Positions 6,702 through 35,885 of a stretch of 64,000 nt of DNA are shown here, one piece after another. Within the stretch, counting starts at the first letter, position 1, and each line of letters begins with the position of its first letter. Under the pieces are notes generated by a model that was not told the origin of the DNA, ran no database searches, and saw only the letters and a program-made list of their open reading frames with translations. The DNA is from a candidate division FCPU426 bacterium (GTDB lineage Bacteria; Oederibacteriota; Muellerivitia; Muellerivitales; Muellerivitaceae). The stretch lies in the NCBI GenBank assembly GCA_963738405.1, contig CAVTWJ010000016.1, forward strand, positions 33,507 to 97,506, read 5' to 3'. The position numbers were made by a program, and so were the translations under genes.

Positions 6702-6854
6702 CTAACCCTTAGTGCGGATGGTGGTTGAAGAAATACAATAAAAACCCAAAATTAGAAACATGAAAAGTCCATAAAACAAGAACCCTTGGAATTGGTAAAA
6801 GAGAGCCCATCGGATCAATTTCGGAGTTAAAGCAACGCTTATTTCACGGTCCAT
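6702..6854 (-). pseudogene. Short/truncated paralog of the upstream YcxB-like gene
   Basis: AGGAG RBS then MDREISVALTPKLIRWALFYQFQGFLFYGLFMFLILGFYCISSTTIRTKG*; starts MDREISV like the 7428 gene. Confidence 0.6.
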
Positions 6855-6861
6855 ATAACTC

Positions 6862-7428
6862 CTAGGGCGAGTGGCGCATCAGCAAATACATGCAAACCGC
6901 GAAAACAAAAAGAAAAAAAGCCAGCCTCATATATCCACCTTTCACCCCTCCATTTTCCTTCAGCACTTTTTCGGTCAAAAAATATTTTAGTTCGTCATCC
7001 AAAAGTTCCGTAGGGATGACATAGGCCTTTTCCGATCCGTAGATCAGCCTCCAAAGTTTCGTGTCTTTTTGAATTCTCTTGATCACGTTCCACGGGTTTT
7101 GTTCTGAACCCAGTTCAGAATTAACATAAAACCATTCATCGGTGAACCGGTACTTGATCAGGGGCTCCTTCATTTTTTGAATCATGACCATGTTCTTGTG
7201 ATAGAGGTTGTAAAAAATAAACCAGCACCAAAGAAGAATGAGGACGATGGGCATGATTTTTCCAAAATAATCGCGCGGAATAAGAGGGCCGCTAGTTATC
7301 AAGTGCAGCAGGATTGCAGCAGCCCCCAAAATAGGAAAAGCGAACCCAATAATGATGGATTTAATCCGATATAAAAATGCCAAACGAAAAAGCCCGGCAT
7401 TGAGATGAACGCTTATTTCCCGGTCCAT
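6862..7428 (-). CDS. YcxB-like membrane protein
   Basis: Two TM helices then YRFTDEWFYV...PWNVIKRI...AYVIPTELL; likely start MDREISV at 7428. Confidence 0.7.
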   Translation of the reverse strand: MDREISVHLNAGLFRLAFLYRIKSIIIGFAFPILGAAAILLHLITSGPLIPRDYFGKIMPIVLILLWCWFIFYNLYHKNMVMIQKMKEPLIKYRFTDEWFYVNSELGSEQNPWNVIKRIQKDTKLWRLIYGSEKAYVIPTELLDDELKYFLTEKVLKENGGVKGGYMRLAFFLFVFAVCMYLLMRHSP

Positions 7429-7524
7429 ATCGCCCCTCTTAAAACCGAAATTCACGCCATTGCTTATTCAGTTTACCCAAGCGAATCGGAAAGGCAAAGC
7501 ACGCAGAAAGGGCAAGAGTAATGG

Positions 7525-7677
7525 TTATTTATTAGTTTTATGAGGATACAAAGGGGGCTCGTTCTGGATGATCTCCCCAGTTAATCGGTAGAGGTCGTCA
7601 CCTGCTTCGAGACCACAAGTCGAGGAGCACGTCTTGGTTGCACCAATGTCCGAGAAAGACATTGGTGTATTGGTCAT
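7525..7677 (-). pseudogene. Rhs stub: start of a third cassette, truncated
   Basis: MTNTPMSFSDIGATKTCSSTCGLEAGDDLYRLTGEIIQNEPPLYPHKTNK*; nearly the same as the N-terminus of ORF 8726-10231, then diverges. Confidence 0.75.
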
Positions 7678-7950
7678 TTAATCGGAATGGATTTTGAGAG
7701 GGTGTTTAACTGGGTATTCAGGTCGGCCACCTGGGCATCGGTGAGGGTTTTGGAGTTGTTCGCTTTGAGGTCGGCTGATTCCTGTTTGCGGATCGCGTCC
7801 ACCTGGGTTTTGAGGGTCTTGGCCTGGGCTTTGGTCAGTTTCCCAGCCTTAACTTCCCTCTGAATTTGGATGTTCTGCTGGCGAAGGCGAACCGTCAGGC
7901 GGTTCATGGGAGTATTGGGGAGGACTTTGGGTGCGGTGGGGGTGGGCATG
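7559..7950. repeat. ~390-bp direct repeat, copy A
   Basis: Matches 10113-10503; covers the mature part of the 112-aa gene, the hairpin junction and the first Rhs codons. Confidence 0.92.
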
Positions 7951-8012
7951 GTTGTGGCAAAGGCCACACTTTGAGTCAGGACCAATGCAAAAACGAATGA
8001 TGAGTATTTCAT
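7674..8012 (-). CDS. Small secreted helical protein, paralog A
   Basis: 112 aa with signal peptide; mature part nearly identical to 10228-10566. Confidence 0.85.
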   Translation of the reverse strand: MKYSSFVFALVLTQSVAFATTMPTPTAPKVLPNTPMNRLTVRLRQQNIQIQREVKAGKLTKAQAKTLKTQVDAIRKQESADLKANNSKTLTDAQVADLNTQLNTLSKSIPIK

Positions 8013-8725: not shown

Positions 8726-10231
8726 TTAGTAGAGGTAATTAAATACAACGGGATCAGCAGTTACGTTATATATTGATCCTTCTTTAGTAACTTTCCAACC
8801 CCAATCAATTTCTCCAAGGTAACTATTAAAGCTAGTCGTATTCCAATTATCTAACCCAACAAGATAAGCTTGAGCTTCCCAGTGACAACTTCCTCCATTA
8901 TTATCAATATCCTTTCTCGGTCTCTGTGATTGGTCAGTAAAACGGGCATTCCCCTTATCTGTTTGTTGTAATGCTTTCTCTATAGTGGTTGGATAAAGCA
9001 AAGGCCATGGCGAACCTTGTGGAAATCCATTTGCAATTGCTTGCGGACTATTCGGAATAAATCCATCAAAGTACCAATCATCTTTCGGTTGCCTGGATGT
9101 TAAGGGTATATCTGTTTTTACCCTTTGCACCCATCTATAAACATTAAATTTCGGTATTCTATTTACAGTTAAGGCATGCGCATTAAGTAAAAAACCACAA
9201 CTATGGCCATCGTTGTCTACTTCGCTTATTGGTAAAAATTCGAACCTAATTGTTCCTGCCAAATCATGAGCCAAAGCCGACCAAAATACATGTGGCTCAC
9301 TGCTAATTCCGCCATCATCATTCCCACTTGGGTCAAACCTGTTCTCGGGATTATTAGAAGCAAATTCGTATTTGTGGAGTGTTAGCGGGTCTTCCGTTTC
9401 CCCCTCATAACTATCCATCGTCTCAAATCTTCCGATGCCTGGATTCATCCATCTCGCTCTCAGATTGTAAAAACCTGTATTCGGATCGAGCTGTTCCCCA
9501 TCGAATTGACAAACATTCTGGGTTGATCCAGTCGAAGAAATAGAATTCCCAAACGCATCCAGGGTGTAGGTATCTCCCGTAACTTGGCCGGCTGAATTCA
9601 TCAGGTAACGAACTGATCCCTGTCCGTCATATCCGTAGTAAGAAAGGGTGAAGGTGCCAGGGACAAAGGAGCCGTTAGAAATTGCCTCTTGGTCTTCCGC
9701 TATTCGGCTTATCCCATAGGTGTAAGTCCTTCCCACTGCCCCGCCTTGGAGTTCATCCATCACTTGGGCGTAGCCGGTAAGGTTGGTGGAGCTGATTAAG
9801 TAGTTGGTGGTCACGCTATTGACCGTCTGGGAAACCTTGTTACCATCCCCGTCATAGATGAAAGATTCATTCAAGCCTGAGCCCGTCACGGTTAAAAGGC
9901 GGTCTAGGGAATCATAGGTATAGGTCTTGGCCGTGGGGTCGGTGAGGGTGTTTCCATCGCTGTCGTAGGTGTAACCCGCCGTCAGGCGGTCGTTTAGGTC
10001 ATATTGGCCCGTGAAGGTCTGGCCGGGAATCTGTGACAGGTCGGAGGTCCTTTGGTTGCGGTTGCCTACGGGATCGTAGGTATAGCCAATAGCCCCATTT
10101 ATGCTCACCGGGTCGTTTTGGATGATCTCCCCAGTTAACCGGTAGAGGTCGTCACCTGCTTCGAGACCACAAGTCGAGGAGCACGTCTTGGTTGCACCAA
10201 TGCCTGAAATGGGCATTGGTGCGTAGATCAT
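8726..10231 (-). CDS. Partial Rhs/YD-repeat protein with Rhs-associated core and C-terminal tip
   Basis: YTYDPVGNR, YTYDSDGN, YTYDSLDRL repeats; core FDGEQLDPNTGFYNLRARWMNPGIGRFETMD...NNPENRFDPSG; 5' part of a full Rhs is missing. Confidence 0.92.
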   Translation of the reverse strand: MIYAPMPISGIGATKTCSSTCGLEAGDDLYRLTGEIIQNDPVSINGAIGYTYDPVGNRNQRTSDLSQIPGQTFTGQYDLNDRLTAGYTYDSDGNTLTDPTAKTYTYDSLDRLLTVTGSGLNESFIYDGDGNKVSQTVNSVTTNYLISSTNLTGYAQVMDELQGGAVGRTYTYGISRIAEDQEAISNGSFVPGTFTLSYYGYDGQGSVRYLMNSAGQVTGDTYTLDAFGNSISSTGSTQNVCQFDGEQLDPNTGFYNLRARWMNPGIGRFETMDSYEGETEDPLTLHKYEFASNNPENRFDPSGNDDGGISSEPHVFWSALAHDLAGTIRFEFLPISEVDNDGHSCGFLLNAHALTVNRIPKFNVYRWVQRVKTDIPLTSRQPKDDWYFDGFIPNSPQAIANGFPQGSPWPLLYPTTIEKALQQTDKGNARFTDQSQRPRKDIDNNGGSCHWEAQAYLVGLDNWNTTSFNSYLGEIDWGWKVTKEGSIYNVTADPVVFNYLY

Positions 10232-10503
10232 CTAATCGGTATCGACTTGGAGAGGGTGTTTAACTGCGCATTCAGGTCGGCTACCTGGGCGTCGGTGAGG
10301 GTTTTGGTTCCGTTGGCTTTGAGGTCGGCTGATTCCTGCTTGCGGATCGCGTCCACCTGGGTTTTGAGGGTTTTGGCTTGGGCCTTGGTCAGTTTGCCCG
10401 CCTTCACTTCCCTCTGGATTTGAATGTTCTGCTGACGAAGCCGGATCGTCAGGCGGTTCATAGGGGTATGCGGAAGAACTTTGGGGGCGGTGGGCGTTGG
10501 CAT
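10113..10503. repeat. ~390-bp direct repeat, copy B
   Basis: Matches 7559-7950, offset about 2554 bp. Confidence 0.92.
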
Positions 10504-10566
10504 TCCCGCGCTAAAAACGGTTGTTTGAACCACAATAAAAAAAAGAATAAAAATTAATAATTTCAT
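10228..10566 (-). CDS. Small secreted helical protein, paralog B
   Basis: 112 aa; MPTPTAPKVLP...RLRQQNIQIQREVKAGKLTKAQAKTLKTQVDAIRKQESADLKAN shared with paralog A. Confidence 0.85.
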   Translation of the reverse strand: MKLLIFILFFIVVQTTVFSAGMPTPTAPKVLPHTPMNRLTIRLRQQNIQIQREVKAGKLTKAQAKTLKTQVDAIRKQESADLKANGTKTLTDAQVADLNAQLNTLSKSIPIR

Positions 10567-10613: not shown

Positions 10614-11264
10614 TTACATTCCAAAACGGCTTTCAAGATCAGAAATATGGTCATAAAGGTCTTTGTATTTTTCTTTAGAAATATTTTTTATACGGTCAAA
10701 AATCAATTTTGATTTTTTTAAACTCAAAACATTCATTTTATTGCATTCATCTGCATTCCCGCTTTCGACAACCACAACATTAAATTTTCCGGATGGCAGA
10801 TCCATGTTACTTGTTCGATTATTTTTTACGGGATATTTGAGTTCAATAGTACTGGTTACCGGTTTATTTACACTGCCGACATCAAAAACCGAAACGCCAA
10901 AGCTTTTCCCAATCTCAACTTCCGATTCTTTAGAAAAATAACCTTTGAATTCGTTCAATATTTTTAAAAAATCAACCTTGGTAACTACATATTGATTAAT
11001 CAAGTCATAAAAATTCAAATTATTTAGTTCGGTATTCAAGATTTTGAAACCATTCGTATTACCAAAAAAAAGTTTTATTTCTTTGGAATCCATCTTTTTC
11101 ATACTAATGATCATTGGAAATGTCGGGTGTGTTTCCGAGCCATAATATTCAACCCATATCGCATTAAACTTTTCATCGTTTTTATTTTGGGTTATCCCAG
11201 CAAAAAGTGATTTGAAAAGGAATAAACAGCAAAAAATTAATAAGAATATATTTATGGCCTTCAT
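10614..11264 (-). CDS. Putative secreted immunity/partner protein of Rhs tip 1
   Basis: 216 aa, AT-rich, signal peptide ending LFA, start overlaps the Rhs stop (TAATG). Confidence 0.6.
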   Translation of the reverse strand: MKAINIFLLIFCCLFLFKSLFAGITQNKNDEKFNAIWVEYYGSETHPTFPMIISMKKMDSKEIKLFFGNTNGFKILNTELNNLNFYDLINQYVVTKVDFLKILNEFKGYFSKESEVEIGKSFGVSVFDVGSVNKPVTSTIELKYPVKNNRTSNMDLPSGKFNVVVVESGNADECNKMNVLSLKKSKLIFDRIKNISKEKYKDLYDHISDLESRFGM

Positions 11265-12143
11265 TAATAACCCCCTTGGTAATCAATCGTTATTGGCTCT
11301 GGTCTTAAATTCAGCGTGCGTCCATTTATAACATCAAAAGCAAAACCATAACGAAATGAAACCATTGGTTGAAAGTTAAGGTCGTTCAGAGAATCGGTAG
11401 CTACAAATGAAAGGTCCGCTTCAAATGTTGTGTGTTTCGTAGTTAATACAGCACGCGGCATATCGAAAAAGACTTCATCGTAAGATGGAAAAAGTTTTTG
11501 CGCATTGTTTGCCTCAGTGGCGTTTTGATAGTAATACGGTATTGAACTTTTTGGCGGTACATCCAAATGCCAACCAGAAGGTTCTCCAGGTATTGAATAA
11601 CTCGCATTTACATATTGAACCCAGTTATAAATCGGATTTTTAAATGTGACGTTTGGGTTTGATCGATTTTTTGTAAGCGCACCTAAAATAATTTGAAGCC
11701 CCGCTGTTTGTTCATGATGCAACTCAGAATCATTTGATATGTAAATGCCTTTATATACCAATTGATCAACTCGGATTGCCGAAAACTGAAGTGAATTAGG
11801 CCATAAAACTTTTGGTTCAGACGCAGTCAATGACATCATGTCATCATTCCCAGTTGGATCGATACGATCAACTGGATCATTAGAATCATAAACGTATTTG
11901 TGCAAGCTCAATGGGTTTTCTTGGGCACCTTCATTTGTGTCCATGCTCATGAACCGCCCCAGGCCTGGGTTCATCCACCGCGCCCTTAGATAAATTAGGC
12001 CTGTGTCGCTGTCGGCGTATTCACCGAATGCGCCCACGTTGTTGGCAGTTCCCGCGCCTGAACTGGAAATCAAATTCCCAAAGGCGTCCCAGGTATAGGC
12101 ATCGGTAATTTGCCCGCCATCATTCATCAAGAAGCGGACATTC
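11264..12143 (-). CDS. Orphan Rhs core fragment with C-terminal tip (5'-truncated)
   Basis: NVRFLMNDGGQITDAYTWDAFG...GLIYLRARWMNPGLGRFMSMD...DPVDRIDPTG; homology ends near 12143 with an in-frame stop just upstream. Confidence 0.88.
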
Positions 12144-12210: not shown

Positions 12211-12271
12211 TTATTGGGTAGGTATGCAAATGCTCGTACAGGCATTTGCATCACCAAAACTCACCCAATAA
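12211..12271. other. Long imperfect hairpin between the ParB-like gene and the Rhs fragment
   Basis: Outer TTATTGGGT/ACCCAATAA; inner ATGCAAATGC-tcgtacag-GCATTTGCAT. Confidence 0.7.
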
Positions 12272-12278
12272 CTTGTTG

Positions 12279-14294
12279 TTATTGGACATGTATCTTTTCC
12301 ACCTTAGAAACCCGCGGCGGCGGGCCGGGGTACACCCCAAAGATAATCGCCACCGGCTGGGTGGCAACCACCTCTCCGGGGTAATGCAGATCGCTTTGAA
12401 CCGTCAAAGCGCCCTCCACCCGGAAATCATCCTCGAAATAGTCCGCCTTGACGCATTCGGCTGGTTTTGTTGCCTTGAAAAAGACGTTGAGCTTCTCGTC
12501 CTGAACCTTTTGCAGATAGGACGGGGGAAAAAAGTCGTAAAAGAACTTCTCAGAATAGTTTTCCCATACCTCGTTTTTGAGGTATCCCAGCCAGACGGGA
12601 GTGTCCCGGTAGGTCGCCCCGAAGAAATAACCGGCAAAATCCTGAACGAACATCTTTTCGGATGGAATCCGGCTTTGGTATTGAACAGGGATCGAAAGGG
12701 TTGGAGCCGCTTGGGCCGGAACCACAGGTGGAGGCCCTTGATTTGGCGCCGCCGCGCTTTTTCTGATCTTTTGATGTTGCCGTGGTTGTGCCGGCGCAAC
12801 CGCGGCGAGTATAGATGACGCGGCTGGTGTCAATATCGCCTTTGGCGACGGCGGAGAGCCAGACGTTTTGGCTTGCTCCCAGCCAGTGGCAGAGTCATAA
12901 ACCCTTTCGGCTTCCCCTTCCACCCATCCCACCACCCGGCCTGGGTGGCGCCAAGCCCAAAGGATTGCCCAAAGGACCAGGGCGGTGAAACCCAGCTGGA
13001 TCAGCCCGTTGACCCATTTCCCCTCGGCACAAAGGCGGATGCCCTTTTCCAGCATTCGATAGGGCCATTTCACTAACCATTCAATTGCCCCAATCAGCTT
13101 GTGCCACACCCATGCCAAAGACTTCCACCATAGGGATTTGGATGCCTTAGCTTTTGAGGCTGTTTTGCCCTTACCGCCTCCTTTGGACCCAGACTTTGGC
13201 TTGCCCTGAGTTTTAGCCGTGCCCAAGGCTGAGGAGGCTTTGGTAAGGTGACCGGCCACTGCCGTTAGGAACTTGTGCAACCCGCCCTGAGCGGGAATGG
13301 TGGTATGGGTCTTTTGTTTCTCATATTCCTCGGGCGGGGTACCCGCCAAGACCGCCTGTACCAGGGCCTTCACCTTGGCTTCGGTCATCTTGTGATCTAT
13401 GGCCACCTTTAGCGCCCGTAGAACCAGGTCTTGTGTTTCGGGGGGAATGGGCGGGTAGGGCCATAGTTTCTGGGGTGCCAGCTGGGCCGAGGCCTCAAGC
13501 CGAGGCCCGTGACTTGCTTGTCCCGGCTCAATGGGGGTATCAGGAGCCGGGATCACCATTTTCTTCTTCACCCCCGGCTTTAGACCCGTTCCGGGGCCCA
13601 AACCCGCCAATTGAAAGGCCGCTCGGTCCGAAAATTCCCACTTTTTGCGATTCGAATTGCTAGCGTTGCTAGCAATTGACGGCTTTAGGGTGGATGAATT
13701 GCTAGCAACGCTAGCAATTAAAGCCCTTGATTCAGGATTTAGGAGCGGTAACAAGCGTATGGCTCGATTTACTTTTACTTCATCTATCTTCCATTTGTCC
13801 GCAATCTGCCTCTGGGTAATGTCCGGGTTGGATTTAATCTTTAGTTCTATGTAAAGGTAATCCGCCCACCAGCCCCTTTTTCTGACTTTATTGTCCCAAT
13901 AGAGAAGATCGGCGGCTTCTTCGGGGGTCGGGTTGTGGATGAACCCGTCAATGGTCTCCCATTGAAGCAGTTCGGCGGCCCTGTCCCGCAGTTCCCCGCC
14001 GTAGATCAGGTAATTGAAATCCCCCAGCTCCCAAGGCTTGCCATCCGCCCTTAGCCGGGGGTCATCGGGATGAAGTTGGGCTCCCCCCGCCAGGGGGTTA
14101 GCCTTATCAGGCCCCACCTGGATGGGATTCTGGAGCCCCCTTTGGGCCATATCATCCGCCTGATCCTTAATTTCTTGTTCGGTGGGCTTACCGGGGTTGT
14201 CCGGGTTGCGGCGGAGATTCTTTCTGGGCAGGGGCTGTTTGCCTGGGAACATTTCCGGCAATAACGCCAAAACATCTTCGATGGTTACGGGCAT
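12279..14294 (-). CDS. ParB-like CTPase/HTH protein fused to a TM helix and a C-terminal extracytoplasmic domain
   Basis: GLQNPIQV, YLIYGGELRDRAA (ParB Arg patch), HTH ITQRQIADKWKIDEVKVNRAIRL, TM LIQLGFTALVLWAILWAW; ATG 14294 follows GGAGG (ORF track starts at 14399). Confidence 0.8.
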   Translation of the reverse strand: MPVTIEDVLALLPEMFPGKQPLPRKNLRRNPDNPGKPTEQEIKDQADDMAQRGLQNPIQVGPDKANPLAGGAQLHPDDPRLRADGKPWELGDFNYLIYGGELRDRAAELLQWETIDGFIHNPTPEEAADLLYWDNKVRKRGWWADYLYIELKIKSNPDITQRQIADKWKIDEVKVNRAIRLLPLLNPESRALIASVASNSSTLKPSIASNASNSNRKKWEFSDRAAFQLAGLGPGTGLKPGVKKKMVIPAPDTPIEPGQASHGPRLEASAQLAPQKLWPYPPIPPETQDLVLRALKVAIDHKMTEAKVKALVQAVLAGTPPEEYEKQKTHTTIPAQGGLHKFLTAVAGHLTKASSALGTAKTQGKPKSGSKGGGKGKTASKAKASKSLWWKSLAWVWHKLIGAIEWLVKWPYRMLEKGIRLCAEGKWVNGLIQLGFTALVLWAILWAWRHPGRVVGWVEGEAERVYDSATGWEQAKTSGSPPSPKAILTPAASSILAAVAPAQPRQHQKIRKSAAAPNQGPPPVVPAQAAPTLSIPVQYQSRIPSEKMFVQDFAGYFFGATYRDTPVWLGYLKNEVWENYSEKFFYDFFPPSYLQKVQDEKLNVFFKATKPAECVKADYFEDDFRVEGALTVQSDLHYPGEVVATQPVAIIFGVYPGPPPRVSKVEKIHVQ
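13655..13719. repeat. Two perfect 23-bp palindromes inside the ParB-like gene (candidate parS-like sites)
   Basis: AATTGCTAGC-gtt-GCTAGCAATT (13655-13677) and AATTGCTAGC-aac-GCTAGCAATT (13697-13719). Confidence 0.85.
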
Positions 14295-14499
14295 ACATAC
14301 CTCCGGCCTATAGGGTTGTACGGCTGATTTTGGATATTTAAATTGTGTAGAAATAATTTTCAAGAAAAAACGGGGGAAACACTTAAACAGTTTGGACAAT
14401 TATTGTGCGGTTTTTTGAAACAACCGCGCTTTATCCTTAGATAAATTCAAATTTGCGAATAAAAAGGGCTGTCGCTTTGGGACAAAGACCCTCAGAAAT

Positions 14500-33005: not shown

Positions 33006-35885
33006 TCAATGCGGATTTCCCCGTTCCCCGGCGACCTTTCCGGTAGTTCGAAGGCGTTTTTCGTCCTTTTGGATCTTTTCGGCCAGGTATTTCCCTGTAT
33101 GGGACTTGGAATTGGACATTATTTCCTGGACGGTACCCGAAACCACCACCTGTCCTCCTTCATCGCCTCCCTCGGGCCCCAAGTCGATGACATGATCTGC
33201 GGTTTTGATGACATCAAGATTATGTTCGATCACAACGACAGTATTTCCTGCCTCCACCAATTTTTTAAGAACTTTTATTAAATGGTCCACATCCGCGAAA
33301 TGAAGTCCCGTCGTCGGCTCATCCAAGATATAAAAAGTTCGGCCGGTGGCCCTTTTCCCAAGCTCGGTTGATAATTTAACCCTTTGCGCTTCCCCACCCG
33401 ACAAGGTAGTGGCGGGTTGTCCAAGATGGATATATCCCAGCCCCACATCCCGGAGAGTTTCCAATATTTTTTTTATTTTGGGAATCGGAGAAAAAAACTC
33501 AAGCGCCTCCAAAATGCTCATCTGCAGGACTTCCGCTATATTTTTTCCCTTATATTGAATCTCCAATGTTTCACGATTATAACGTTTCCCTTTGCACACC
33601 TCGCATGGGACATAAACATCCGGTAGAAAATGCATTTCTATTTTAAGAACCCCATCGCCCTCGCAGGCCTCACAGCGGCCGCCTTTAACATTGAAACTAA
33701 ACCGTCCATCCTTATAACCGCGGGCCCGCGCCTCAGGAAGATGGGCGAATAAATCTCGGACATGGGCAAAAAGACCCGTATAGGTTGCAGGGTTCGAACG
33801 TGGAGTGCGGCCAATAGGCGATTGATCGATTTCAATAACCTTGTCTACATTCTCAACGCCCTCCAAAGAAACAAACCCTTCCGGTTTCATTCGAAGCCCA
33901 AAAAGAGTGTGCATCAGCGCCGGATAAAGCGTCTCCATCACAAGCGTGCTTTTTCCAGAGCCCGAAACGCCTGTTACTGCCAAAAAAACCCCTAATGGAA
34001 ATTCAACTGTCAAATTTTTAAGGTTGTTCTTATTTGCGCCAGTCAAAACAAGTTGTTTCTCAAAAGACCGTTTCAATTTTAAATTAGGCTCAATGAAACG
34101 TCGGCCAGAGAGATAGGCCCCCGTGAGAGATCGTGGGCATTCTAGAATCTTTTTAAGATTTCCAACAGCCACTACCTCCCCCCCCTCTATTCCGGCCCCG
34201 ACTCCCATATCAATGATATAGTCAGCCGCCTCAATTGTGTCCTCATCATGCTCAACTACAATTACGGTGTTTCCAATATCCCGTAAATGCGTGAGTGTTT
34301 CTAAGAGCCTAACATTGTCTCGTTGGTGCAATCCGATTGAGGGTTCATCCAAAATGTACAACACTCCAACCAAAGCGCTGCCAATTTGTGTCGCAAGATG
34401 AATCCTTTGAGCCTCGCCGCCGGATAGCGACGCGGTCATACGATCAAGAGTTAGATAATTGAGGCCCACATTTTTTAAAAAGCCGAGTCGATTACGTATC
34501 TCTTTGAAAATTTGAACCCCAATGGCGCTTTCTCTTTGATCTAACACCAGGGTTTCAAAAAAAATCAGACATTGCTGAACTGACAATCGAGTAAGTTCTA
34601 TGATATTTTTCCCGCGGATCGTTACCGCTAAGCTTTCAGGCTTCAGGCGAGTGCCTTTGCAAGAACGGCACGGCTTACTGACAAGATACTTCTCGATTTC
34701 CTCACGAATAGATTCTGAATCCGTCTCGTGATAACGTCGTTCTAAGTTGGGAAGAACCCCCTCGAAGGGACCGGAAAATCTTTGACGGTAAGTACCCTTT
34801 AAAATCTTAAATTCAATTTCTTCCTGGCTTCCAAAAAGAATTGCGTTTTGTACTTTTGACGGCAGTTTTTTAAAGGGAACGTTTTGAGAGACCTTGAAAT
34901 GTTGGCAAACCCCATCCAAAAGGTTTTGATAATAAAGAGCCTTGGGGGAGCTGTAGGGTTCCACCGCGCCTTCGGCAATGGATTTTTCGGAATCCACTAC
35001 CAAAGTTTCATCCGCTTCCATTTTATGGCCCATTCCAGTGCAAGCTGGACAAGCCCCGTGGGGATTATTGAATGAAAAATTTCGAGGCGCCGGTTCCTCA
35101 ACACTTATCCCACAATGAACGCATGCAAAACGTTCGGAAAAAAGATGTGCCTTTTCCTCTTTGCCGGTTCCCTCCAGTATCTTGACAACCCCTTCGCCCA
35201 ACTTGAGCGCGGTTTCGAGAGAATCTGTTAGTCTTTTTTTGATTTCAGGTTTTAAAACGAGACGATCGACCACCACTTCAATGTCATGTTTTTTGTTCTT
35301 CTCCAGCGGAAAATCTTCTTCTAAATCACGAATCACCCCATCTACTCGAATGCGAACAAATCCATCCTTCCTTACTTGATCAATAATCTTTTTATATTCC
35401 CCTTTTCGGCTCGAAATAAGAGGCGCAAGTAGATGCAATTTACTTCCGGTTCTAAGCGACAAGACTTGATCAACAATTTGCTGAACCGTTTGACGGCTTA
35501 TAGGACGCGCGCATTGCGGACAATGCGGTGTTCCAATGCGGGCAAAGAGTAATCGTAGATAATCGTAAATCTCCGTAGTTGTCGCAATGGTCGATCTCGG
35601 ATTTTTACTTCCCGCTTTCTGCTGAATGGCGACGGCTGGCGAGAGGCCCTCGATCATATCAACGTCAGGTTTTTCCATTAGACCTAAGAATTGCCGCGCA
35701 TATGCCGAAAGGGATTCAACATACCTTCGCTGACCTTCAGCAAAAAGTGTGTCAAAGGCAAGCGATGACTTTCCAGAACCGGATACACCCGTTAAAACCA
35801 CTAGCCGGTCCCGCGGCATTTCCACGGTAATGTTTTTAAGGTTATGTTCCCTGGCGCCGCTTACATAAATGGTGTCGCGTTTCAT
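33006..35885 (-). CDS. uvrA: Excinuclease ABC subunit A
   Basis: GAREHNLKN, two Walker A (GVSGSGKS), zinc-finger Cys pairs, LSGGEAQR twice. Confidence 0.98.

Follow-up and report, generated by a model that had tools for sequence, protein, structure and literature searches.

A lineage-specific two-hairpin repeat at orphan Rhs junctions and inside unrelated genes of an uncultured bacterium

Why should two gene copies that differ at many positions share a run of 63 identical bases just where each meets Rhs-type sequence, and what are the hairpins that lie there? The question is raised by a 64,000-nucleotide (nt) stretch of DNA (the window: positions 33,507 to 97,506 of contig CAVTWJ010000016.1, assembly GCA_963738405.1) from a candidate division FCPU426 bacterium of the family Muellerivitaceae (Oederibacteriota), in which two genes for a protein of 112 amino acids (aa) are each joined to a piece of an Rhs gene. 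The initial annotation took the junction for a cassette boundary, defined by a structure under selection such as a single-stranded DNA (ssDNA) recombination site or an element of RNA processing or stability. We found that the two stems of the junction are one repeat unit of about 66-75 nt, with at least 49 copies in the genome of the window (G000; assembly 90.7% complete), five of them in a 6-kb island at 7.6-13.6 kb of the window. We give a probability of about 0.72 to the reading that the element is a lineage-specific, interspersed two-hairpin DNA repeat, similar in kind to repetitive extragenic palindromes (REP) and Rickettsia palindromic elements (RPE).

The unit has a constant layout. A 5' CNCCUG is followed by hairpin A, then by a linker with UUUGG at its end, and lastly by hairpin B. 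Hairpin A is built of 5-6 variable outer pairs, a tandem G.A/A.G internal loop, three further pairs and a CNCAA loop, and hairpin B has about 11 pairs whose sequence is different in each copy. A search of G000 with the junction itself returned a third junction-like match (76% identical) inside queC on another contig, and blastn searches of 40 relatives placed the core at many sites, tandem arrays included. Copies were counted with R1, a covariance model of the two-hairpin unit built after the alignment of 16 copies, at a threshold of E<=0.01; as 150 of about 1005 first-look candidates in G000 were scored, 49 is a minimum, and the R1 copy numbers in all genomes are lower bounds. The five places in the island, together with the identical run, are as follows (coordinates are window positions).

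7586..7648, no strand: run of 63 nt shared exactly with 10140-10202; spans 13 nt of flank derived from Rhs, all of hairpin A, the linker and the opening 8 nt of hairpin B
7599..7673, plus strand: element copy A, full; R1 77.9 bits, E 4.4e-17; hairpin A 7603-7629, hairpin B 7641-7667; antisense inside a 50-aa stub open reading frame (ORF)
10153..10227, plus strand: element copy B, full; R1 79.8 bits, E 1.5e-17; plus-strand fold -39.0 kcal/mol, z -3.29; hairpin A 10157-10183, linker, hairpin B 10195-10221; antisense in codons 2-26 of a 501-aa Rhs ORF
12219..12292, minus strand: diverged copy of a subfamily with A-U/U-A, recognized by sequence and fold; R1 29.4 bits, E 1.9e-5
12708..12802, plus strand: weak, doubtful copy inside a ParB-like ORF; R1 19.8 bits, E 0.0038; fold z -1.29, no better than shuffles
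13479..13551, plus strand: third full copy; R1 58 bits, E 2.6e-12; antisense and in frame in the 706-aa ParB-like ORF

The sequence features that had drawn attention to the junction are all there. The run at 7586-7648 equals that at 10140-10202 exactly, with a mismatch at the base on either side; the annotated hairpin (hairpin B) reads CACCAATGTC-cgagaaa-GACATTGGTG at 7641-7667 and CACCAATGCC-tgaaatg-GGCATTGGTG at 10195-10221; the second, bulged stem corresponds to hairpin A at 7603-7629 and 10157-10183; and Rhs-type sequence begins directly past the element in both copies. Aligned without gaps (offset 2554, 7556-7995), the two junction copies agree at 365 of 440 positions, with 32 nt as the next longest stretch of identity, and when the 75 mismatches were placed randomly, a run of at least 63 nt arose in a fraction of 1.6e-4 of 100,000 trials. 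Identity is spread unevenly, at 238 of 275 nt in the mature 112-aa gene, 24 of 34 in hairpin B and the gene-end spacer, 42 of 42 in hairpin A and linker, and 40 of 43 in the Rhs stub, and the two junctions have in common a 93-nt segment with 3 differences. The run appears to reflect recency rather than an extra constraint on its bases, because hairpin A and linker diverge like the neighbouring gene between G000 and a relative of the same genus, G003 (37 of 42 and 235 of 275 nt identical, respectively), yet are 42 of 42 identical within G000, where the identity continues into the Rhs stub. Judged from these comparisons, it would mark a younger segment, produced by a recent duplication or by a gene conversion that ended inside the element.

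The fold itself is maintained in evolution, as had been proposed on the strength of one compensatory base pair seen in two copies; that pair proved to be one among hundreds. Among the 16 hand-picked copies, 92.5% of the cells in stem positions pair, compared with 31.5-40.3% in a slid control, in which stem partners were shifted out of register, and 13 of 20 pairs change on both sides. In an alignment of 72 distinct copies (80 matches from G000 and related genomes), the figures are 93.3% and 32.7-42.9%, with 18 of 20 pairs and 315 cells changed on both sides and none of 500 shuffles reaching as high a value; this alignment was fitted to R1 and so favours structure, but the hand-made one agrees with it. 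Further, one subfamily carries A-U/U-A in place of G.A/A.G, and the G.A/A.G positions therefore act as pairs. Tandem G.A motifs are common building blocks of RNA. The alignment of copies holds 89 G.U/U.G cells but 28 A.C/C.A cells, so that the plus strand of the window is the folding one; the two junctions fold at -39.0 and -34.0 kcal/mol on this strand versus -34.8 and -30.5 kcal/mol on the other. At this locus, the strand that folds runs antisense to both the Rhs and the 112-aa genes.

Most copies lie in or beside genes that have nothing to do with Rhs. On a crude map of G000, in which 2745 ORFs take up 90.7% of the genome, 35 copies of the 49 are inside ORFs, 6 lie across an ORF end and 8 fall between ORFs. 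The 35 run both ways, 15 in sense and 20 in antisense by these crude calls, some of which are probably not genes; for the 24 in supported ORFs, that is, ORFs backed by a family match or by paralogues, the counts are 7 and 17 and are not independent, three copies being a tandem triplet and two lying in paralogous genes. The hosts comprise queC, an AddA-like helicase-nuclease gene (twice), an SASA esterase, a PMT_2 transferase, a GNAT protein, ParB-like paralogues and a glycosyltransferase, and the element occurs in at least three reading frames, in both orientations, between genes, and in direct tandem arrays with a period of 63-73 nt. At 22 of 35 loci, judged over 25 kb, the folding strand was the C-rich one; this replication-strand bias falls short of significance and cannot be separated from gene direction, with which it is confounded.

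Arrays of 2-6 units, some of them identical, were noted at C5:1-640, C6:9270-9474 and C12:64299-64440 of G000 (C numbers denote contigs). The C6 array consists of three 66-nt units inside a ParB-like ORF, and the C5 array, which is of the same type as the diverged window copy at 12219..12292, is at a contig end, so that repeats may limit assembly.

The ParB-like genes deserve separate mention. Ten mosaic paralogues of about 570-820 aa hold 15 of the 49 copies, each at least one, which is far above their share of the genome. Several have a ParB_N or HTH_ParB head, and their mutual similarity is mosaic and module-wise. The third full copy of the window, read in its ParB-like ORF as ...GPRLEASAQ..., recurs at the equivalent position of the paralogue at C23:146116-148545. 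The ten were noted at 12279-14399 of the window (minus strand) and at C1:103701, C5:30577, C6:8844, C9:24949, C12:78082, C14:125320, C22:49033, C23:8188 and C23:146116.

Comparison with relatives shows the element filled in at some sites and absent from the same sites elsewhere. QueC could be read in 25 genomes and contains the element in two, G000 (+93 nt) and G012 (+66 nt; a member of another genus of the bacterial family), each time in frame between SCYDP and PCGxCDSC; the G012 copy is without the G.A motif. The loop seems generally tolerant of insertions, because two genomes have a longer loop between SCY.P and CGxC with no R1 element there (by about 12 residues in L215 of G033 and about 6 in L194 of G001). 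The AddA-like helicase-nuclease of 1126 aa, with UvrD and PD-(D/E)XK domains on either side of the insertions, has two exact 69-nt in-frame insertions that run in opposite directions, as an alignment with five relatives established (G001, G002 and G003 of the same genus; G004 and G012 of other genera of the family). G000 is filled at both sites, G012 at site 1 only, and G003 and G004 at site 2 only, and both sites are empty in G001 and G002. The filled copies share hairpin B and are clearly orthologous. To account for this pattern across genera, one must therefore assume several clean losses or else repeated hits on a single site. Such clean presence and absence inside conserved proteins is the behaviour of inserted DNA.

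Direct repeats accompany three filled-versus-empty sites and measure 4 nt (TGCG, at AddA site 1), 10 nt (CGCCAGTGCG, at AddA site 2) and 6 nt (CCCTGC). The idea that the 3' arm of hairpin B copies its target holds at one AddA site (10 nt) and was rejected as a general rule.

The same sites show that the fold is kept in place. Between orthologous copies, stem differences are only compensatory or wobble steps, and loops change freely. Specifically, the three stem differences between G000 and G012 at AddA site 1 are all A-U to G.U or the reverse; at AddA site 2 only one or two wobble steps separate the stems, with 4 of 6 loop bases different between G000 and G004; and in the Rhs junction copy of G003, hairpin A shows a U-A pair exchanged for A-U.

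The repeat is confined to one bacterial family among the genomes compared. R1 matched 24 of 24 other genomes of the family and 0 of 16 from nine other families, and a phylum-wide scan matched 30 of 30 others from the family and 0 of 68 from 22 families elsewhere in the phylum. Between them, the 31 family genomes hold more than 600 copies. We also scanned 596 Gb of contigs with a 17-nt degenerate core and obtained at least 109 stretches from very many phyla where several hundred chance matches are expected; a pattern of this kind says little about range. When 80 of these stretches were scanned with R1, 8 loci from four assemblies (L140, L104, L106, L066, L118, L079, L109 and L097) gave full matches or cut matches of the full type at 30 bits or more, and the rest fitted only in the core that had been typed.

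How would such a repeat behave? On the reading that we prefer, that of an interspersed DNA repeat, hairpin A, with its invariant G.A/A.G and loop, would be the handle for a putative family-specific protein, and hairpin B would need only to pair. Units of 66-69 nt would have been inserted at many places, present or past movement proceeding through an ssDNA form, with intragenic units surviving if they kept the frame; they would amplify locally into direct tandem arrays and also be lost again cleanly. At the Rhs locus, a unit lies directly after the stop of the 112-aa gene, with an Rhs fragment abutting its 5' edge, so that the ORF beginning at the ATGA overlap reads through it and gains a 26-residue leader. 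Of the initial suggestion of an ssDNA recombination site, the ssDNA half is retained here as the most plausible physical form, and the tie to Rhs cassettes is given up.

Several observations weigh against this reading. First, the copies in G000 are old: compared in pairs they have a median identity of 59%, those with unrelated flanks reach 86% at best, near-identical copies at unrelated sites are absent, and there is no sign of recent movement. Second, the direct repeats at the three filled-versus-empty sites, of 4, 10 and 6 nt, are placed differently, and a genome-wide test of flanks against element ends gave a weak excess once tandem copies were set aside. Third, no enzyme is tied to the element. 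The Y1 transposase domain PF01797 went undetected in 6 of the 24 family genomes that bear the element, one of them G021 (99% complete, 58 copies), and was found in 11 of 16 outgroup genomes that are without the element, and no R1 match better than E 1.3 lies within 1.5 kb of the three Y1 genes of G000. Fourth, all three Rhs fragments of G000 have an element copy at, or within about 90 nt of, their start, which leaves room for a local role. In addition, template-switch repair of quasi-palindromes is a possible source of compensatory changes without selection, and could have yielded some of those counted here. Taken together, old copies that still pair, conserved in place, fit a per-site host function as well as or better than they fit a selfish element.

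Around the junctions, every gene is encoded on the minus strand. Listed by falling coordinates, they are the 706-aa ParB-like ORF, a 288-aa Rhs fragment, a 216-aa gene, a 112-aa gene, the 501-aa Rhs ORF, a 180-aa gene, the second 112-aa gene and the 50-aa stub, of which the following concern us.

12279..14399, minus strand: ParB-like ORF, 706 aa; weak parB_part match, and paralogy
11264..12130, minus strand: orphan Rhs fragment, 288 aa; TIGR03696 at residues 15-94, E 5.5e-16; RHS core and toxin-like domain
10228..10566, minus strand: 112-aa gene, copy B; hydrophobic, signal-peptide-like N-terminus by eye
8726..10231, minus strand: Rhs fragment, 501 aa; TIGR03696 at residues 225-303, E 1.3e-14
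7674..8012, minus strand: 112-aa gene, copy A; 80% protein identity to copy B
7525..7677, minus strand: stub, 50 aa; leader and 13 Rhs residues, then unrelated sequence and a stop; tblastn 85% to residues 3-41 of the 501-aa ORF

The ATG of both the 501-aa and the 50-aa ORF overlaps the stop of a 112-aa gene as ATGA, and the hairpins are within the first 26 codons. The 501-aa ORF has a 26-residue leader that runs through the element, then YD repeats and the RHS core, and ends in a toxin-like domain; the toxin-like end of the 288-aa ORF is related to that domain, with 47% identity to residues 206-389 of the 501-aa ORF. NCBIfam found the RHS core of the Rhs fragments, for which Pfam gave no family at E<=0.01, and neither the toxin-like C-terminal parts nor the 180-aa and 216-aa proteins had a family match. 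These two proteins have a hydrophobic, signal-peptide-like N-terminus by eye, and each, encoded 3' of an Rhs fragment, is a candidate immunity protein. G000 contains three Rhs-like stretches, all in the window, and no full-length rhs gene was found in its 90.7%-complete assembly; a longer Rhs protein of a relative carries ...PDDLYRLT... internally. The diverged copy at 12219..12292 contains the stop codon of the ParB-like ORF in its hairpin A and ends about 90 nt upstream of the 288-aa fragment.

The 112-aa family has homologues in 21 of 24 other family genomes and in 1 of 16 outside, and it has expanded within the bacterial family, G000 holding 8 matches and one sister genome as many as 15; no Pfam family was found above cut-off, and the body of the protein looks helical and K/Q-rich by eye. 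In G003, the orthologous place keeps the order seen in G000, with a 110-aa gene, the element and a 414-aa Rhs ORF that has the ATGA overlap. The Rhs sequence joins the element 61 residues further in, G000 residue 89 aligning with G003 residue 28; the toxin ends after the RHS core are unrelated between the two genomes, and their common sequence starts exactly at the CACCTG of the element. The leader peptides are similar at 18 of 26 residues, and both G000 copies, like the one in G003, keep the region open in frame. A second gene of the 112-aa family in G003 is without an element. Among 28 loci around 112-aa homologues in relatives, the element lies beside the gene only at this G003 orthologue, and one copy in G014 is about 400 nt away.

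A general role as Rhs cassette boundary, the core of the initial proposal, is not borne out by these comparisons, given a generic repeat with at least 49 matches in G000, mostly in or beside unrelated genes, and an element beside the 112-aa homologue at 1 of 28 loci in relatives. Nor do all orphan Rhs fragments start at one codon, as that proposal led one to expect: the breakpoint varies by 61 residues in G003, and the 288-aa orphan starts elsewhere.

Elsewhere in the neighbourhood, a 30-nt direct repeat, 87% identical, is found at 6834-6863 and 7408-7437, at the starts of two neighbouring membrane-protein ORFs (one YcxB-like), which suggests a local gene duplication.

One alternative to an interspersed DNA repeat is that the element is a recombination joint, either an attC-like structure-specific site or a dispersed homology patch that joins gene modules, and as such would link Rhs toxin cassettes to the 112-aa gene and the N- and C-terminal modules of the ParB-like paralogues. 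The placement just described speaks in its favour, with the element exactly at the 112-aa/Rhs junction twice in G000 and once in G003, Rhs starts 61 residues apart yet always at the CACCTG edge and in frame, unrelated toxin ends downstream, a subfamily copy about 90 nt before the third Rhs fragment, and five copies in a 6-kb island. So does the concentration of 15 of 49 copies in ten mosaic ParB-like paralogues, where 18 of 74 homology breakpoints fall within 15 residues of a copy, compared with 11% at random (9 of 1000 trials). This excess is, however, partly trivial, as an insertion by itself ends a BLAST alignment, and the pairs are not independent. A structure kept without sequence conservation, with a single folding strand, is likewise attC-like, and the young 93-nt segment with its 3 differences fits an exchange ending inside the element. 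Yet the least ambiguous cases are simple insertions of 66-69 nt into single-copy housekeeping genes, without any exchange of flanks, direct tandem arrays of identical units are unlike cassette sites, the attC R' box GTTRRRY is near the end of 1 of 49 copies only, and the element accompanies the 112-aa homologue in relatives at the G003 locus alone. No recombinase could be linked to the element, integrases not having been searched for. We regard a recombination joint as unlikely.

A bolder form of the same idea, which we hold to be decidedly unlikely, would see in the element a family-wide, vertically kept ssDNA signal whose hairpin A is read by a putative protein of the lineage, and a universal joint at which DNA is cut and rejoined and genes are built from modules. 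It would hook orphan Rhs cassettes to an expressed upstream gene, which provides the start codon and leader, and would shuffle the halves of membrane ParB-like proteins, an integron-like principle inside reading frames without the integron integrase.

That the element is instead a functional RNA motif wherever it is transcribed, for protein binding, processing, stability or antisense action, with marking of the cassette boundary included, is in our view very unlikely. Strong covariation, the many G.U pairs and the tandem G.A motif are what such a motif would display, orthologous stems are kept in place, and arrays present one loop repeatedly. The strand that folds is, however, the antisense one for the Rhs and 112-aa genes, and copies within ORFs run in both directions (15 sense and 20 antisense in the crude calls, 7 and 17 in supported ORFs), which also makes the proposed processing or stability role in a cassette mRNA unlikely. 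Further, Rfam gave no match at E<=1 across seven loci with single copies and arrays, there is no U-tract after the hairpins in either junction copy, in agreement with the initial annotation, and clean presence and absence inside conserved proteins is how inserted DNA behaves.

Lastly, that there is no nucleic-acid element, the identity and stems being chance or a by-product of coding constraint on an Rhs N-terminus (the junction is open in frame twice in G000 and in G003, with leaders alike at 18 of 26 residues), has next to no probability, as it is contradicted by a genome-wide family of two-hairpin units in unrelated genes, in at least three frames, in both orientations, between genes and in arrays, and by a 63-base identical run unexpected by chance.

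If the element is or was mobile, as the reading of an interspersed DNA repeat would have it, which protein might handle it? RAYT-like genes of about 318 aa, with a Y1 domain and a C-terminal HTH, are present in the family (NF047646 at 72 bits, below the cut-off of 80), and PF01797 was found in 18 of 24 family genomes. Near Y1 genes of relatives, 8 R1 copies were found in 7 of 20 neighbourhoods (134.5 kb), against a rough expectation of 1.5-3. A RAYT link is not established by these data, co-occurrence being patchy and flanking copies absent in G000. G000 also has two small GIY-YIG genes, at C9:12185 and C21:56666, and none of the 49 listed R1 matches is near them; a link to the Ssn/SRM system was rejected, with 0 of 49 copies fitting the published SRM pattern.

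Some further observations concern the RAYT-like genes in their own right. One lies a few kilobases from 112-aa-family genes in L248 (10113-11060; G003:C9), G018:C64, G024:C39 and G000:C19:21015-25483; one is 0.9 kb from the G003 junction element; and one is next to queC in G012 and G029. A different repeat of 55-77 nt (GGGATCGCCACGTCGCC...GGGGCGGCTCCTCGCGATGACA) stands directly upstream of one RAYT-like gene (G000 C12:142084-142165) and at no fewer than 8 further places (C21, C2, C23, C18), and fits neither R1 nor the published SRM pattern. Between the two RAYT-like genes of C12, blastn matches of 37-50 nt recur about seven times at C12:144389-155823.

Among known systems, some of the nearest in habit are the RPE, described in a review (PMC10969869) as elements of about 150 bp in ten families, with 44 integrations in R. 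conorii, nearly half of them within ORFs. The element resembles them in being a short hairpin repeat that sits in frame in many unrelated genes, adds a peptide without breaking the gene, and also occurs between genes. It differs in being half as large (66-69 nt), in having two dissimilar hairpins in a row instead of one long palindrome, in forming direct tandem arrays, in occurring in an unrelated, free-living, uncultured host lineage, and in being read in several frames and both orientations, so that no conserved peptide is encoded. Its size and use of several frames argue against membership of the RPE families, from which it is set apart by description and not by sequence.

REP sequences (PMC3116915) are short imperfect palindromes of tens to hundreds of copies with long vertical inheritance, tandem clusters and a presumed fold in ssDNA. 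The element is like REPs and their REPIN doublets in being a short imperfect palindrome in many copies (49 in G000) with both stems covarying and with vertical persistence. In SBW25, however, REPs are almost wholly extragenic according to the same paper (14 of 1,067 16-mers overlap genes), whereas 35 of 49 copies of the element are inside crude ORFs and 24 are in supported genes. Unlike a REPIN, it has two different hairpins in series and forms direct-repeat arrays, not an inverted doublet. As to a cognate RAYT gene, the Y1 genes of G000 are not flanked by the element and 6 of 24 element-bearing genomes show no Y1 gene, and in relatives the neighbourhoods of Y1 genes hold the 8 copies given above. 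Neither end of the element (CNCCUG... and ...GGYRC) is an inverted copy of the other, and every arm has its partner within its own hairpin, in contrast to transposable elements of the miniature inverted-repeat type (MITEs).

An attC site conserves its structure and not its sequence, folds on one strand, retains internal positions that are unpaired or non-canonical, and lies at the boundary of a small gene cassette. The element is similar in keeping structure without sequence, in folding on one strand, in retaining non-canonical positions and in lying at small cassette boundaries, but a GTTRRRY box is seen within the final 25 nt in 1 of 49 copies and has no counterpart in the consensus, there are two hairpins rather than one, and most copies are inside genes or arrays and not between cassettes. 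The Ssn NTS/SRM repeats (Chenal et al. 2025, PMC11893778) are likewise genome-wide hairpins for which reading in ssDNA by a dedicated small protein is proposed; in contrast, 0 of 49 copies fit their published pattern and none is near GIY-YIG genes. The element fits no compared class in full, being mostly intragenic, with no inverted doublet, no terminal inverted repeats, no attC core and no Rfam match. Its four core strings did not occur in the literature searched.

The locus itself resembles the orphan rhs-CT/rhsI modules (Koskiniemi et al. 2014, PMC3967940), truncated Rhs genes with part of the core, followed by a small candidate immunity gene and lying downstream of other modules. According to that paper, such modules usually are without translation initiation signals. 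Here, unlike there, a repeat unit supplies an ATG that overlaps the upstream stop, together with a 26-codon leader.

An apparent cassette signal thus becomes a testable repeat family whose fold is kept at fixed sites across genera. Should the element be selfish DNA, it would add a new and clear-cut example of hairpin elements inside essential proteins, and would carry a warning for annotation, as ORF starts, "leaders" and protein loops in these genomes would be repeat-derived. If, alternatively, it has a host role, the conserved hairpin A points to a putative structure-specific DNA- or RNA-binding protein. The R1 covariance model offers a simple marker of the bacterial family in metagenomes. 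At the locus in the window, finally, the element may explain how an orphan Rhs toxin fragment acquired a start codon.

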